From the NCBI GenBank assembly GCA_934654475.1, contig CAKUFZ010000002.1, forward strand, positions 86 to 64,085: DNA of 64,000 nt, given 5' to 3'. This document shows, piece after piece, positions 42,100-45,472 of the stretch (within the stretch, counting starts at the first letter, position 1; each line of letters begins with the position of its first letter). The stretch is from an uncultured Coriobacteriales bacterium. GTDB taxonomy: Bacteria > Actinomycetota > Coriobacteriia > Coriobacteriales > UMGS124. Position numbers and translations under genes: made by a program. The notes under the pieces are model-generated. The model was not told the origin of the DNA. It was given only the letters and a program-made list of their open reading frames with translations, and did not search any database.

Positions 42100-42900
42100 C
42101 TATGACTCCTTTTCATCGATTGGGGTCGAAATCTCGACAAGCATCACACTTATGTTGTCATCTGAACCGCCAACCAAAGCAGCATTAAACAGACTTACCG
42201 CCTTAGTCTGCAGGTCGACGTCGGCACCTTTGAGCATCTCTTCAATCAGCTGATCAGGCACGCCCTCGGTCAGACCGTCTGAGCAGAGGAGAAAGATGTC
42301 GTTTTCAAACACAGGCCATGCCTTTGAAATATCGACGATGTCCCACCCCGGGCCAAGTCCGAGTGCGCGCAGGATAACATGAGCTTGATTGGTTTGCGCC
42401 CACTCAATCTGCTCTTGAGGCGCATGGATGCTTTCGAGCTGTTGCACAACTGAATGGTCGCCCGTCTGCCGCGCAAGGAAACCGTTACGCATCCGATACA
42501 CGCGTGAATCCCCGGCGTGGAATGTAACGAATTCTCCCTTGGCAATCGCAATTCCAGCCGTGGTCGTTGCCATGGATGTCCCACACCTCCATGACGCGGA
42601 TGTCGCACTCATCTCGCGACTCGTCTGAGAGAGCACCGCGCAAGCCGCCTCGGCCAGACCCCGCGCATCACACCCGGCGTCGACTTCAAACCCCGCGAGA
42701 GCCTGAGCAGCGAGAGAAGATGCCTCGGCACCATGCCCTCCCGCGCTCACCCCGTCGAACACGGCCAGAAGGGTGGGTTCCTCGACCTCGATGCAGCACG
42801 ACCCTGAGGCAAGAACTCCCCCGCCTATGAAAAGCCTGTCTTCGTTCGTTGACTTCACCGCGCCTTTGTCGGTAACGGCGGCGACCTGTATCACAGCCAT
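42100..42900 (-). CDS. PP2C-family Ser/Thr protein phosphatase
   Basis: 266 aa with TDKGAVKSTNEDR, LAVFDGVSAGGHGAEAS, LCSDGLTEGV and GGSDDNISVMLVE. Confidence 0.88.
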   Translation of the reverse strand: MAVIQVAAVTDKGAVKSTNEDRLFIGGGVLASGSCCIEVEEPTLLAVFDGVSAGGHGAEASSLAAQALAGFEVDAGCDARGLAEAACAVLSQTSREMSATSASWRCGTSMATTTAGIAIAKGEFVTFHAGDSRVYRMRNGFLARQTGDHSVVQQLESIHAPQEQIEWAQTNQAHVILRALGLGPGWDIVDISKAWPVFENDIFLLCSDGLTEGVPDQLIEEMLKGADVDLQTKAVSLFNAALVGGSDDNISVMLVEISTPIDEKES

Positions 42901-44873
42901 GCGGAAGCTCCCGTCTCCGTGGAATACACAATATGCCCTCCCTGAGCAGAGGCGTAAATCGTCGCGCCCTGCGGCACTCGCATATCAAATAGGTACTCGG
43001 CAAGCGTGTTGAGGTATTCGGACTCGATGTAGTTGGCGATGCCTCGACCGCCCTTCTCTTTGACATCGGTGGAAAGCGAGGCCTGAACGATTTGGTCGAA
43101 GCAGGTCTGGTCAACCTCGACATGTACACCCTGCTGCTTGAATACGGCATGGTTGACCTGGTCGACTTTTTGGCGGGCAATGAGGGCAGCAGAGGCGTCG
43201 TCGATGTAGTCGAACACAACGACGTTGTTGCCGATGCGACCCAGAAACTCCGGCTTAAACGTCGCCTTCATCGCGGCCATTACTTTGTCGCGCACCGCAT
43301 CGTATGGCTCACCGGGACCGATAAGCGTCTGGTGGTCCACCACATGGCGACCCGACGCGTCATATACCTCGCGTGAGAAACCGATATTGCTCGTAAAGAA
43401 AATGAGCGTCTCGCTGAAATAGACCGTTGTGCCCTGCCCGTCGGTCATACGCCCGTCTTCCAATATTTGCAGGAACTTGTCCATGATGCTGGGAGAAGCC
43501 TTCTCCACCTCATCGAACAGCACGACTGAGAAGGGGTTTGCACGCACGGCGTTGGTCAGTTGACCGCCTTGCGAGTAGCCCACATACCCCGGCGGTGCAC
43601 CGAACAGCTTTTGGTCGGAATTGTCCCCCTGATACTCAGACATGTCGAAACGCAGACAGCTCCGCTCGTCGCCAAAAAGCATCTCAGTGACTGCTTTCAC
43701 TATCTCGGTCTTGCCGGTACCTGTTGGACCGCTGAGGAAGACGACGCCTTTAGGCTTGCCGCCGCCAGAATGCGTGGCCCCCGACAAACCCAAGACGGAT
43801 CGCTTGAGAACCGACACGACGGCATCGACGGCCTGGTCTTGCCCTTTGACTCGTCTACGAATGACATCTCCGGGGTCATGCTCGAGCTTCTCGAGCATCG
43901 TAGCCCACTTGTTTTCCTTGAGACCGTATTTATACACGTCAACCAGTGCAGCGAGATCGGAGGAACCCTGGGTATCGCGGCCGTGCATGCGCCTAAGCTC
44001 GTCAAGCTCCCGCAAGGTCATGGCGTCGGTCATGTCGACGAAACGCTCCGTTTCCGACTTCTCCCCTACGACGAAACCCTCGGTTGGCAGGCTGGGCGGA
44101 ATCATCGTCTGCACATAGAGCTCGCGCGTCGCCCTGTCAGGGTTGGGCACTGTGACAACACGCATGTTGGGATTGCCGTTTACAAACCAATCAGGCAGGT
44201 CATTGCGGCGGCTTGCAACCAGAATGAGGGTATTGCGATCGCTGGACGACCCATCGGGCGAACATACGCGCAAGGCATCGCTTGCCGCAACAAACAGGTT
44301 AGTGAAGAACGCCGTTTCGTCTGGGTCGAGATGCGAAGGCGAGGTGAGAACGCGCGACGCCATGTCGACGACAACGGCAACAGGTTTAGCGACCGGGTGG
44401 CCCGGCTTGTTTCCTCCCAGACGAGGGCCGCCTCCCCCGTCGAGCTGCAACGGGCTTGCAAGGAGCGCACGTATGAGGCGTGAGTCTTGAACAAGGTCGC
44501 TCACCTGGCTGGATTGCGTCTGACGGGCATGCCCAAACGAGTTGACCCTGTCGGATTCCGCCTGCATATCAGCCGCCGCACGGCCTGCTGCCGCAAGATA
44601 GCGCTCGACATCAGATTCCTGGAACATATTGGTGAAACGACGCAACGGGTCGTAATACACGAGCTGATACTCGCCCGATGCGGCATCCTCCGAAAAGACC
44701 GCATGGAGCAGCTCGTTGAGTGTCAAGAAGCCTGCCTGTGCCACGTCGTCAATCGCGTCGCCACCGTCCCAAACAGGATACAGGTCGTTGACGTTGCCCT
44801 CAAAGAGAAAGAGGCTCTTGATGCCCTTGAAGTTGCGCAGCTCGCGCTGCCACTGTTGCCTCTGAATGCTCAC
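42891..44873 (-). CDS. AAA+ ATPase with a ClpA/ClpB D2-like module and a degenerate N-terminal module
   Basis: 660 aa. The C-terminal half carries VKGQDQAV..FLSGPTGTGKTE (Walker A), VVLFDEVEKA (Walker B), PPGYVGY and FTSN. The N-terminal roughly 300 aa lack a P-loop. The GTG start overlaps the upstream stop (GTGA) and is preceded by gggagg. Confidence 0.75.
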   Translation of the reverse strand: MSIQRQQWQRELRNFKGIKSLFLFEGNVNDLYPVWDGGDAIDDVAQAGFLTLNELLHAVFSEDAASGEYQLVYYDPLRRFTNMFQESDVERYLAAAGRAAADMQAESDRVNSFGHARQTQSSQVSDLVQDSRLIRALLASPLQLDGGGGPRLGGNKPGHPVAKPVAVVVDMASRVLTSPSHLDPDETAFFTNLFVAASDALRVCSPDGSSSDRNTLILVASRRNDLPDWFVNGNPNMRVVTVPNPDRATRELYVQTMIPPSLPTEGFVVGEKSETERFVDMTDAMTLRELDELRRMHGRDTQGSSDLAALVDVYKYGLKENKWATMLEKLEHDPGDVIRRRVKGQDQAVDAVVSVLKRSVLGLSGATHSGGGKPKGVVFLSGPTGTGKTEIVKAVTEMLFGDERSCLRFDMSEYQGDNSDQKLFGAPPGYVGYSQGGQLTNAVRANPFSVVLFDEVEKASPSIMDKFLQILEDGRMTDGQGTTVYFSETLIFFTSNIGFSREVYDASGRHVVDHQTLIGPGEPYDAVRDKVMAAMKATFKPEFLGRIGNNVVVFDYIDDASAALIARQKVDQVNHAVFKQQGVHVEVDQTCFDQIVQASLSTDVKEKGGRGIANYIESEYLNTLAEYLFDMRVPQGATIYASAQGGHIVYSTETGASAWL

Positions 44874-45472
44874 ACTGCCTCCCTCGCATGCATGTCCGAC
44901 GGGCGGTCGTGGATTCCGACCGAGATTGCACGGTTCTCAAACACGAAGTTTTGGACCCATCGCCCCTGTCTCATGTACTCCGCATACTTCCGCCGCATCT
45001 TCTCGTTGAGGAAGTTGACGCGTTGGTTATCTGAACCGCGCAAGGCAAGCCCAGCCACGTTGCGCGCGGCGATATAGGGCCCGTCTATAAGAACGTCAAC
45101 GCATGTTCGCAGGCGTAGCCAATTCGCATGGGACAGACAGCGTTGAGCTTCTTCGAGCGTGTAGCCCGTATACAAAAGGACATCGTCATAGACGCTGCGG
45201 ACGGCCTCCAGGCAATCGAGGAGCTCGTCGGGTTGCTCAAGGGGGTCTCCGCCGGTGAGCGTAAGCTCGTGGCAACCATAGGACTCGCCGACATCCAGCA
45301 GGTAGCGAGCGAGGCCGCCCGGTGGCATTTCCTGCGCCTCGGTAGATGTCCACAGCTCGGGATTTGCGCACTCCGCACAACGCTTGGAACAGCCCGCCGT
45401 CCATATCACGGCGCGCCTCCCCGGCCCCAACGTCTCGACAGGGTAGAGAATCCTATCCACGCGCATCGTCAA
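44870..45472 (-). CDS. NrdG/PflA-like radical-SAM activating-enzyme homolog (orphan)
   Basis: 200 aa with [29 protein letters not shown] (CX3CX2C directly before N-P-E-x-W) and [11 protein letters not shown], as in anaerobic RNR or glycyl-radical activases. No NrdD or glycyl-radical enzyme is in the window. Confidence 0.65.
   Translation of the reverse strand: [200 protein letters not shown]

Follow-up and report, generated by a model that had tools for sequence, protein, structure and literature searches.

A radical-SAM protein of the glycyl-radical-activase clade and a Clp-type AAA+ protein share a conserved six-gene cassette with a possible phospho-threonine switch

Background

What does a protein of the glycyl-radical-activase type do beside an AAA+ ATPase, in an operon where no glycyl-radical enzyme is detected? 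The question is raised by a stretch of 64,000 nucleotides (nt) from an uncultured Coriobacteriales bacterium (contig CAKUFZ010000002.1; this whole stretch is hereafter the window), in which the gene of a compact radical S-adenosylmethionine (radical-SAM) protein, here gene C, overlaps the gene of a 660-amino-acid (aa) AAA+ protein, here gene D. Glycyl-radical activases abstract the C-alpha hydrogen of a glycine from an extended peptide loop, and the benzylsuccinate synthase operon pairs such an activase, BssD, with an AAA+-type chaperone, BssE. A sequence-only reading of the window had described C as an orphan activase overlapping D within a kinase/FHA/ATPase operon and presumably acting on a protein or nucleotide substrate, possibly a secreted protein or an effector precursor.

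Here we find that the coupling of the two genes is real, and that the conserved unit is a cassette of six genes rather than of two. Our preferred reading, which is tentative and in our judgement somewhat short of an even chance, is that C and D form the enzymatic core of a phospho-threonine-switched protein-processing machine belonging to conflict systems (delivery of toxins or defence against invaders), and not to nucleotide or fermentative metabolism.

The two genes belong to a conserved six-gene cassette

Genes C and D lie in a run of 14 co-directional minus-strand genes (47915 to 29735) that overlap or are separated by gaps of at most 33 nt. A 104-nt apparent overlap of two small open reading frames (ORFs; 33602-33958 and 33855-34094) is probably an over-extended start call. 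Since a promoter and terminator scan across the operon gave counts not above those of shuffled sequence, the operon structure is argued from gene packing. At the C/D junction the sequence GCA GTG TGA / GTG AGC ATT confirms the GTGA overlap, noted earlier, of the radical-SAM stop with the GTG start of the AAA+ gene, and GGAGG lies 6 nt upstream of the D start. The surroundings described earlier were also found, namely FHA, PP2C, kinase and FtsK-type neighbours. The first six genes of the operon, with the methods or profiles that identify them, are as follows:

46494-47915, minus strand: gene A, 473-aa protein without a family match (profile libraries, AlphaFold2 [AF2] model)
45453-46490, minus strand: gene B, 345-aa protein with zinc ribbon and FHA domain (family profile against ArnA, 5a8i)
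44870-45466, minus strand (ORF to TTG 45472): gene C, NrdG-like radical-SAM protein, 198 aa (Pfam, NCBIfam)
42891-44873, minus strand: gene D, 660-aa AAA+ protein (Pfam, NCBIfam, AF2 model)
43869-44873, minus strand: N-terminal half of D, residues 1-335, predicted degenerate D1-like tier (conservation, AF2)
42891-43868, minus strand: C-terminal half of D, residues 336-660, ClpB/ClpV-D2-type tier (AAA_2, ClpB_D2-small)
42100-42900, minus strand: gene E, PP2C-type Ser/Thr phosphatase, 266 aa (PP2C_2, 1.4e-07; Stp1/IreP model, 5.5e-35)
38964-42140, minus strand: gene F, Hanks-type Ser/Thr kinase, 1058 aa from TTG (Pkinase, 7.3e-20)

A protein search found 947 relatives of C of 185-235 aa, and a search of a species-representative genome collection placed the locus in at least 582 genomes. 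Among the matches listed, the hosts are mostly strict anaerobes and belong mainly to Coriobacteriia (Collinsella, Adlercreutzia, Slackia and Eggerthellaceae) and Clostridia (Lachnospiraceae, Oscillospiraceae, Ruminococcus, Clostridium drakei and Cuneatibacter), with some metagenome-assembled genomes (MAGs) labelled Synergistaceae, Cloacimonadota and Fibrimonadales.

We compared the ORFs of 85 loci (numbered with L below) with the operon proteins of the window, directly and then by iterated profiles. D accompanies C in 84 of them, the sole exception being a contig that ends at C, and in most it lies directly downstream (the order is rotated in L078); this co-occurrence, asked for in other genomes by the sequence-only reading, is far beyond chance and extends to essentially every relative. 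Where the flank is sufficient the full set of A (about 420-560 aa), B (200-360 aa), C, D, E and F is near-universal. Gene A is found upstream of B-C-D in 78/85 loci by iterated profile and E is found in 71/85, the Eggerthellaceae-type cassettes being without E. The set occurs in the orders ABCDEF, FABCDE and DEFABC, and its retention through such rotations is strong evidence for one functional system. The earlier notion of a coupled pair was therefore right as to the coupling and too narrow as to the unit.

Six Clostridia loci carry a gene of about 360 aa with leucine-rich repeats (LRR) between C and D. In these FABCDE-type cassettes the inserted gene encodes a coiled-coil N-terminus followed by BspA-type LRR, and in other loci a membrane protein of about 250 aa is found between D and E. 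The LRR-gene inserts are located as follows:

L045, 11033-12121
L056, 11063-12157
L068, 10632-11735
L072, 9316-10401
L081, 5151-6176
L083, 10018-11133

Protein C is an activase-clade enzyme that fails the tests for NrdG

The ORF of gene C (44870-45472, minus strand) gives 200 aa when counted from TTG, and the ATG at 45466, which follows AAAGGAG by 8-9 nt, is on nucleotide context the more likely start (198 aa). The compact activase layout reported earlier holds, with Pfam matches to Fer4_12 (2.8e-28) and Radical_SAM (2.1e-08), a CX3CX2C cluster motif, the SAM motif LTGGDPLEQ and LRGSxNQ. In an alignment of 34 relatives the residues C26, C30, C33, G72, G73 and D74 are invariant, as are the patterns GPGxR...W..GC...C..C, TGGDP.EQ and GSxNQ. 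C also fits what we take to be the PROSITE signature G-x-G-x-R-x3-[FL]-x2-G-C-x3-C-x2-C-x-N, except for an invariant W in place of F/L.

NrdG is the best family for C, sharing with it GPGxR...GCx3Cx2CxN, GGDP(L), (V)LIDG, RGSxNQ and the compact size. However, the window protein reaches 91.3 bits against the NCBIfam NrdG model TIGR02491 and thus stays below the curated equivalog cutoff of 126.1 bits. NrdG is likewise the top family in 34/34 sampled relatives (best E 9.9e-35), all of which we estimate to fall below this cutoff, the best at about 120 bits when extrapolated from the E-value and score of the window protein. The other NCBIfam matches are PflA and further glycyl-radical-enzyme activases, and by profile scores the PflA, HPD, CutD and BssD activases belong to the same clade as C, although C is much shorter than the ferredoxin-domain-bearing forms. 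QueE is matched by only one of the 34 relatives, at 6e-06. Among solved structures PflA is nearest in sequence (5.4e-08), the match covering the cluster and SAM core only. Past the span of the 154-position NrdG model, C continues in a C-terminal extension, about 45 residues long, particular to its family and conserved in the 34 relatives (Y..Y...GRxVQN.....SVGIH).

The earlier statement that no NrdD, PFL-type enzyme or glycyl-radical motif is near C is borne out. Pfam, NCBIfam and a reading-frame scan detect no NrdD or PFL-type protein in the 64-kb window, a regular-expression search for R-[IVTLA]-[CSAT]-G-[YFW] returns nothing in the 14 operon proteins or in window reading-frame stretches of at least 200 aa, and the RVxG[FYW] motif expected of PflA-type partners is likewise absent from operon and window. 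Across about 95 loci inspected, none has an NrdD or PFL-type gene adjacent to C. C further differs from NrdG in having a Clp-type AAA+ neighbour and in occurring also in obligate aerobes.

Judged by its sequence, C is an activase-clade enzyme with intact cluster and SAM motifs, a sister of NrdG that is not NrdG because of its sub-cutoff score, its C-terminal extension and the absence of a glycyl-radical partner nearby. The sequence-only reading had allowed that the gene might simply be a displaced nrdG; conserved synteny, the sub-threshold NrdG score and the extension argue against this. Public annotations nevertheless name relatives of C 'anaerobic ribonucleoside-triphosphate reductase activating protein' or '4Fe-4S single cluster domain protein'.

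Protein D is predicted to be a two-tier Clp/Hsp100-type protein with one dead tier

The C-terminal half of D is a D2-type module of the ClpA/B kind, as had been read from its motifs, with AAA_2 at residues 373-547 (6.6e-50) and ClpB_D2-small at residues 563-639 (3.2e-05). It carries the Walker A motif GPTGTGKTE, the Walker B motif LFDEVEKA, the segment GAPPGYVGY, which we take to be the substrate-gripping pore loop known from ClpB, the sensor-1 motif TSN, and GGRG, presumably the equivalent of the ClpB sensor-2 GAR. Within the family G382, G385, G387, K388, T389, E455 and G429 are invariant, and D454, P427, P428, Y430, G432, Y433, T494, S495, N496 and G608-G611 are found in at least 90% of sequences, so that within the pore loop only G429 is strictly invariant. 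Against curated cutoffs the protein scores 247/1232 bits for ClpB, 224/885 for ClpV1 and 198/993 for ClpA, the alignment being over D2 only; the module is thus about equally close to ClpB and to ClpV.

The N-terminal half is more divergent. Pfam is silent over residues 1-335, and no Clp_N domain is matched in D. The lack of a P-loop noted earlier extends to the family, with no Walker A motif GxxxxGK[ST] in this half among 26-74 aligned members and a conserved EGNxxD in its place. Other conserved motifs are D..SR, N, P..W, NP, P....R, T.G..EL and YKYGxxENxW, with G317 in the YKYG linker being invariant. The profile of this half gives a weak match (E=0.06) to the lid junction of VCP-like ATPases (R-I-x-I-P-x-PD...R...T-x-G), and hhalign detects no similarity to the protein's own D2 half. 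In the full-length AF2 model (predicted local distance difference test [pLDDT] 85; predicted template modelling score [pTM] 0.73), Foldseek aligns 520-735 columns with the two-ring proteins ClpC, ClpB and ClpA (E down to 3.6e-33).

D is therefore predicted by its modelled fold to be a two-tier Clp/Hsp100-type AAA+ protein with a dead D1 tier and an intact D2 tier with pore loop. The D1-likeness of the N-terminal half rests on the weak VCP lid-junction match and on the predicted fold, as the comparison with D2 was null. The description of D as ClpB-D2-like accordingly stands for the C-terminal half, while the N-terminal half seems to be a degenerate D1 rather than an unrelated region. D shares with ClpB, ClpV (TssH) and ClpC the Walker motifs, sensors, pore loop, D2-small domain and predicted two-tier fold; it differs from them in having neither a D1 P-loop nor Clp_N and in its length (600-680 against 800-870 aa). 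In the variable stretch 498-523, presumably the site where a ClpP-docking tripeptide would be expected from ClpA, ClpC and ClpX, no IG[FL] tripeptide reaches 80% conservation.

The D-specific N-terminal half forms 405 clusters at 50% identity, nearly all of them in proteins of 600-680 aa. This count comes from an exhaustive representative search (an earlier word-index search gave one match). No domain fusions were found in long members of the D family, and the 190-aa tail of one of them (P0242) is low-complexity.

The four partner proteins suggest a phospho-threonine switch

Protein B begins with a CxxC...CxxC zinc ribbon, which a low-complexity linker joins to an FHA domain at the C-terminus. 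Its family profile matches Sulfolobus ArnA (ZnR-FHA, 5a8i) over the full length (1.3e-13), and many other FHA domains were matched too. C5, C8, C19, C22, G142 and N180 are invariant, and R143, S159 and H162 are present in at least 90% of sequences. In phosphatase E all four metal-binding motifs are visible (FDGVSAG, GDSR, SDG and DDN). Kinase F has the catalytic motifs HRDVKPSN and GDFN, a long middle region and four predicted C-terminal transmembrane (TM) segments; from the nucleotide sequence, a true start at the ATG at 42098, directly after the E stop, is plausible. The predicted TM segments number four to six in Coriobacteriia, and the versions of Clostridia are predicted to be soluble. 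The conserved core of the system thus appears to be cytoplasmic, since the membrane anchor of F is confined to Coriobacteriia.

Protein A has no Pfam, NCBIfam or PADLOC match. In its AF2 model (pLDDT 77), a long helical region (5-270) leads into a small alpha-beta5-alpha domain (286-418), and the basic C-terminal tail is disordered; fold searches of PDB and BFVD gave nothing significant (best E 0.2 and 0.04, respectively). The N-terminus (47901-47915 in the window) reads MSGPK in 38/71 sequences and is hydrophobic in Collinsella and a few others. The C-terminal tail (46494-46590) is disordered, rich in Arg and Lys, and often ends in ...REMR. The extreme termini of A are conserved although the protein otherwise evolves fast; they might serve the AAA+ pore as handles or be where A is modified. 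The pair G321-Y322 (VMARHGY) is invariant in an alignment of 15 sequences; over 71 loci G321 is kept in at least 95%, whereas Y322 falls below the 80% threshold.

Taken together, the kinase, the PP2C phosphatase and the ZnR-FHA protein would form a reversible phospho-threonine switch, by analogy with Fha1-PpkA-PppA and ArnA/ArnB.

The D-C pair recurs on plasmids and beside conflict genes

A translated search with the D-specific half covered plasmid records and phage genomes and found it in 12 plasmid records. The plasmid of Aristaeella lactis carries a full FABCDE cassette beside a giant DUF4011 protein. Other loci bring the pair, or in L006 a second and separate radical-SAM/AAA+ pair, together with different partners:

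L088, 329-10036: Photobacterium toruni plasmid, five-gene set
L089, 155-10066: Polaromonas naphthalenivorans plasmid, five-gene set
L087, 7662-16403: Rhizobium leguminosarum plasmid pRLgr12_2, D-like protein, radical-SAM protein, then a 2086-aa fusion
L006, 3243-7059, minus strand: second trio, with a 515-aa protein, a 189-aa NrdG-like radical-SAM protein and a 548-aa CDC48/FtsH-type AAA+ protein

The five-gene set runs from an MkoA-like superfamily 1 (SF1) helicase (PADLOC MkoA, 310 bits) through a PIN-domain protein and a hypothetical protein to D and C, and adjoins an integrase or transposase on both plasmids; by itself it resembles a defence-type system, one not yet described. Its third gene encodes a helical protein of about 370 aa with an A-like layout. 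Homology of this protein to A is not supported, hmmsearch being null and hhalign giving E=0.23 on one helix. The Rhizobium fusion combines a Ser/Thr kinase domain, DUF4011, an SF1 helicase and REase_MTES_1575 (PADLOC: PDC-S37, 462 bits; Hhe, 217; MkoA, 157), and since its kinase domain is fused to a helicase-nuclease, the kinase association of the pair persists there.

In these proteobacterial loci the order is reversed (D then C). The D proteins score 485-578 bits against the D profile and share 38% identity with the window D over residues 159-630 (E=5e-98), a span that takes in the YxYGxKExxW linker, and their radical-SAM partners have the core motifs of C. The Photobacterium homologue of C gives weak PADLOC pVip matches (4e-08). 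Rhizobium and Polaromonas are obligate aerobes, and the D-C pair is thus present in such hosts.

Further contexts are seen elsewhere. In L092 an FtsK/SpoIIIE ATPase is accompanied by toxin-immunity genes (Endonuclease_NS_2 and YezG-like), and in L093 small proteins and an FtsK-type ATPase are encoded next to a conjugative coupling protein. Some loci (L092, L095) also have vWA proteins added to the cassette. In L006, a Coriobacteriaceae MAG, the second trio lies 4 kb from the main cassette with its radical-SAM gene directly upstream of the AAA+ gene; the radical-SAM protein scores 105.7 bits against NrdG, again below the cutoff, and as its AAA+ partner is of the unrelated CDC48/FtsH type, the pairing of a radical-SAM protein with an unfoldase appears to recur independently.

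The window cassette continues into an FtsK-type and toxin-like tail

Downstream of gene F the operon goes on with the following genes:

38308-38952, minus strand: gene G, accessory single-pass membrane protein with YARHG domain (YARHG, 1.2e-09)
37709-38317, minus strand: gene H, accessory four-TM protein, VTT/DedA-like (VTT_dom, 2.3e-07, below the gathering score)
34082-37675, minus strand: gene I, accessory soluble FtsK/SpoIIIE-type ATPase, 1197 aa (FtsK_SpoIIIE, 2.5e-15)
33284-34094, minus strand: three small helical ORFs of 79, 118 and 104 aa (ORF list; WXG100 profile for the middle one)
31642-33252, minus strand: 536-aa protein, candidate polymorphic toxin (EAD9, 7.6e-04; WHH, 1e-03; both below gathering scores)
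29735-31630, minus strand: 631-aa Sel1-repeat protein, last operon gene, candidate immunity protein or adaptor (Sel1, 1.3e-14)

The closest relatives of the window locus (L004 and L095-L097) share the extended layout of ABCDEF, YARHG protein, VTT/DedA-like protein and soluble FtsK-type ATPase. The G position is likewise filled in L095-L097, H recurs in L004, L075 and L095-L097, and I recurs after the cassette in L004, L059, L084, L092, L093 and L095-L097. Protein I has a coiled-coil N-terminus and no predicted TM segment, scores well below the family cutoffs (EccCa, 74 vs 509 bits; EssC, 59 vs 778 bits) and matches PADLOC mad8 at 8.6e-18. The ORF 33602-33958 matches WXG100 weakly (E=0.0031; 18.2 bits against a gathering score of 27.3; profile positions 4-82 of 86), and the 536-aa protein is helical at its N-terminus and shows a weak nuclease-like motif of the WHH (HNH/EndoVII) type.

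On these sequence features the 536-aa and Sel1 proteins look like a toxin/immunity or effector/adaptor pair, and the whole FtsK/WXG-like/WHH-like/Sel1 tail resembles a polymorphic-toxin export module. The suggestion that C acts on a secreted substrate or an effector precursor fits this subclade; it does not describe the general function, because the extension is found in a minority of loci. Cassette and tail are located in an island of lower GC (about 27.9-52.3 kb, at 0.48-0.59) within a window of GC about 0.63.

Comparison with known systems

Four kinds of known systems resemble parts of the cassette. BssD/BssE also combine an activase with an ATP-dependent AAA+-type helper; BssE, however, is of the MoxR/CbbQ-type single-ring kind and its operon encodes the glycyl-radical enzyme, whereas D is of the Clp/Hsp100 type. 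In type VI secretion a threonine-phosphorylation pathway, Fha1-PpkA-PppA, acts with ClpV, and the cassette likewise groups an FHA-domain protein with a Hanks kinase, a PP2C phosphatase and an AAA+ protein resembling ClpV. It differs in its Gram-positive hosts and in the addition of a radical-SAM enzyme and A, and Pfam and NCBIfam find no type VI structural gene (sheath, Hcp, VgrG, baseplate or membrane complex) among the 14 operon proteins. The phospho-switch ArnA/ArnB of Sulfolobus (ZnR-FHA and vWA proteins with kinases and a phosphatase) shares its ArnA architecture with B, while our cassette is bacterial, has no archaellum context and, in the window, lacks a vWA gene. With type VII secretion, the window subclade has in common an FtsK/SpoIIIE ATPase, helical proteins of about 100 aa, and a toxin-like and a repeat protein; yet its FtsK-type protein lacks TM segments and scores far below the EssC/EccC cutoffs, no EssB, EsaA or EccB/D/E homologues were detected, and the extension is absent from most loci.

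Defence systems give a further comparison. Proteins of the Mokosh (MkoA), Hhe and PDC-S37 kinds adjoin the D-C pair in Proteobacteria, one of them fused to a kinase, whereas the window cassette has no helicase or nuclease of that kind. Radical-SAM proteins in other contexts are treated in an eLife 2020 paper on conflict systems, a NAR 2024 reappraisal of Dnd and a 2025 preprint on Ophion and Dionysus; the components of Ophion, a recently named radical-SAM defence system, differ from those of the cassette. Our literature search, of incomplete coverage, found no account of the C-D pair or of the cassette. Pfam, NCBIfam and PADLOC hold no models for A, the N-terminal half of D or the C subfamily. 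The single domains are known, and the system as a whole is apparently without a described counterpart.

Proposed function and alternative explanations

How could these parts work together? In the mechanism that we propose, kinase F, membrane-anchored in Coriobacteriia, would sense a signal and phosphorylate a threonine on a cassette protein or on a target; the FHA domain of B would read this mark and bring the D hexamer to the phosphoprotein, and phosphatase E would reset the switch. D would then engage a disordered terminus and thread the polypeptide. Protein A is a candidate adaptor or first substrate, given its conserved MSGPK N-terminus and basic disordered C-terminal tail. C may dock on D through its family-specific extension and, by means of the 5'-deoxyadenosyl radical derived from SAM, abstract a backbone hydrogen (of the Gly C-alpha type) from the extended chain, with an irreversible outcome such as cleavage, cross-linking or activation. 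That D presents an unfolded polypeptide to C is the simplest reading, as the clade of C acts, so far as is known, on an extended peptide loop and D, its translationally coupled partner, is a polypeptide translocase. Of the two substrate classes considered earlier, the activase clade and the unfoldase partner favour protein, and nucleotide less so. The genes that follow in the window, for an FtsK-like ATPase, WXG-like proteins and a toxin/immunity-like pair, are probably linked to the output there, and in Proteobacteria we infer that the D-C pair is linked to helicase-nuclease effectors. A role in conflict rather than in metabolism is suggested by the recurrent toxins and immunity genes, FtsK-type ATPases, LRR proteins and helicase-nucleases, by plasmid carriage and by the low-GC island.

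Several points weigh against this proposal. The basic ABCDEF cassette has no nuclease or other obvious effector, and the FtsK-type extension is limited to a minority of loci. PADLOC-DB v2 recognises no system in the window operon, giving generic partial domain matches only (PDC-M37B and DolB on the D2 core; mad6, MkoA and PD-T4-6 on the kinase domain) and none for A, B, C and E, and the translated search found no relative of the D-specific module in phage genomes. Across many Collinsella species the cassette has a conserved local context and resembles a stable lineage trait, and in Slackia and an Eggerthellaceae-type contig its surroundings are those of an ordinary chromosome, unlike a shuffled defence island. 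The C-D complex and its substrate are putative, and the chemical outcome on a free chain is speculative, because abstraction of a glycine hydrogen followed by its return changes nothing.

The genomic contexts just described agree also with an explanation without conflict, namely that the cassette is a housekeeping module of anaerobes for threonine-phosphorylation signalling and protein quality control, with a role in envelope stress, in division or in remodelling of the stress-granule kind. The cassette is found throughout Collinsella, where 18 loci show further kinase and FHA genes beside it (the pattern fbBfABCDEF), its chromosomal contexts in Slackia and in Eggerthellaceae-type contigs are ordinary, and its components are all regulatory or chaperone-like, in analogy to the FhaA/FhaB-PstP-PknB operons. 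Such a role is nonetheless unlikely in view of the patchy cross-phylum distribution, the plasmid-borne copies, the low-GC island that holds the window copy and the repeated association of the cassette with toxins, LRR proteins, FtsK-type ATPases and helicase-nucleases, and it would leave the radical-SAM partner unexplained. The idea that C is a displaced activase, of NrdG or another enzyme encoded elsewhere, with D unrelated or a helper chaperone, explains why NrdG is the best family match (91 bits) and agrees with the public naming of its relatives as anaerobic ribonucleotide reductase activating proteins; it is very improbable nevertheless, because the NrdG score is below cutoff and the C-terminal extension conserved, because C and D are syntenic in 84/85 loci across phyla and gene-order rearrangements, because none of about 95 loci has an adjacent NrdD or PFL-type gene, and because the pair lives in obligate aerobes.

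Two other explanations keep C and D together and change the chemistry. C might install a stable glycyl or backbone radical on a cassette protein, A or D, which would thereby become a small glycyl-radical enzyme of a new kind or a switch that bears a radical, with D as a loop-exposing chaperone and the kinase module as a gate. The membership of C in the clade of glycyl-radical-enzyme activases, the BssD/BssE precedent, the predominance of strict anaerobes, in which such radicals are stable, and two candidate sites would all suit this: G317 of D is invariant, and G321-Y322 of A follows a conserved helix, being invariant in 15 sequences with G321 kept in at least 95% over 71. We give this a small chance only, as the motif R-V-x-G-[FYW] occurs in no operon protein, the domain of A is predicted to be a small alpha-beta5-alpha fold without a fold match and not a ten-stranded barrel, and in obligate aerobes (Rhizobium, Polaromonas) oxygen would destroy a stable glycyl radical. 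Alternatively, C might act on a nucleotide, nucleic acid or small molecule in the manner of viperin or QueE and yield a toxic or signalling product, with D and the kinase in regulatory or scaffolding roles. Compact Fer4_12-type enzymes do include QueE (weak structure match, 5tgs), the Photobacterium homologue has its weak pVip matches (4e-08), and in Proteobacteria the partners of the pair (SF1 helicase, PIN, REase) are enzymes that act on nucleic acids. This too seems improbable to us, for 34/34 relatives match NrdG best and then protein-directed activases, with QueE in 1/34 at 6e-06, C is invariably accompanied by a polypeptide translocase whose pore loop is intact, and no pVip-type nucleotide-binding or nucleotide-kinase partner is present.

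We therefore retain, tentatively, the phospho-threonine-switched protein-processing machine. Its more specific form, a 'radical unfoldase' in which an activase-type radical-SAM enzyme works on Clp-fed polypeptides as the irreversible executive step (cleavage, cross-linking or activation of target proteins) of a new and widespread phospho-threonine-gated immune or competition system of gut anaerobes and proteobacterial plasmids, and which would be the first example of its kind, is possible but rather doubtful.

Other genes around the cassette

The low-GC island holds the whole cassette, the FtsK/toxin tail and a RiPP-like locus (ribosomally synthesized and post-translationally modified peptide). 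It is bordered by housekeeping genes, PNPase (23039-25297) on one side and a MiaB-like gene with DnaJ (52323-54937) on the other. Its borders show neither a tRNA nor an obvious integrase, the sole tRNA of the window being tRNA-Pro at 9951-10027.

The RiPP-like locus lies just upstream of the cassette (48660-50207, 50439-50948 and 51393-52271, all minus strand). It encodes a 437-aa radical-SAM/SPASM peptide maturase, which is CefB-like and matches TIGR04463 (rSAM_vs_C_rich) at 2.6e-47, all matches being below cutoffs. Directly after the maturase a Cys-rich ORF of 63 aa (48660-48851; ...CGSAGHFYG...CSTICQPYSVPGGGTPCGSKCMLYCVGK) may, from its sequence, be the precursor peptide, and upstream of the maturase are a 169-aa protein and a LytTR response regulator (51393-52271).

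At the other edge of the island, on the opposite strand, a 526-aa protein (27945-29525, plus strand) combines AAA-ATPase_like (8.9e-65) with a PDDEXK_9 nuclease. The region 25329-27838 (plus strand) encodes a multi-pass membrane protein and then an AgrC/LytS-type GHKL histidine kinase (HATPase_c_5, 1.2e-11). The GHKL kinase and the LytTR regulator lie on opposite sides of the island, which may have split or joined a two-component pair.

Conclusions

If the proposed function is correct, the chemistry of glycyl-radical activases would extend beyond the switching on of metabolic enzymes, and ATP-driven protein unfolding would be coupled to radical chemistry in a new way. The cassette would be an extensive gene system so far without annotation, carried by at least 582 species representatives that include Collinsella, Adlercreutzia and Slackia, abundant in the human gut, and many Lachnospiraceae and Oscillospiraceae, in which databases mislabel C as an anaerobic ribonucleotide reductase activating protein. 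Bacterial immunity and competition would then possess a modular two-gene unit that is reused with kinases, with FtsK-type ATPases and toxins, and with helicase-nucleases. Even if the mechanism is wrong, the strict synteny of the six genes gives a directly testable system.

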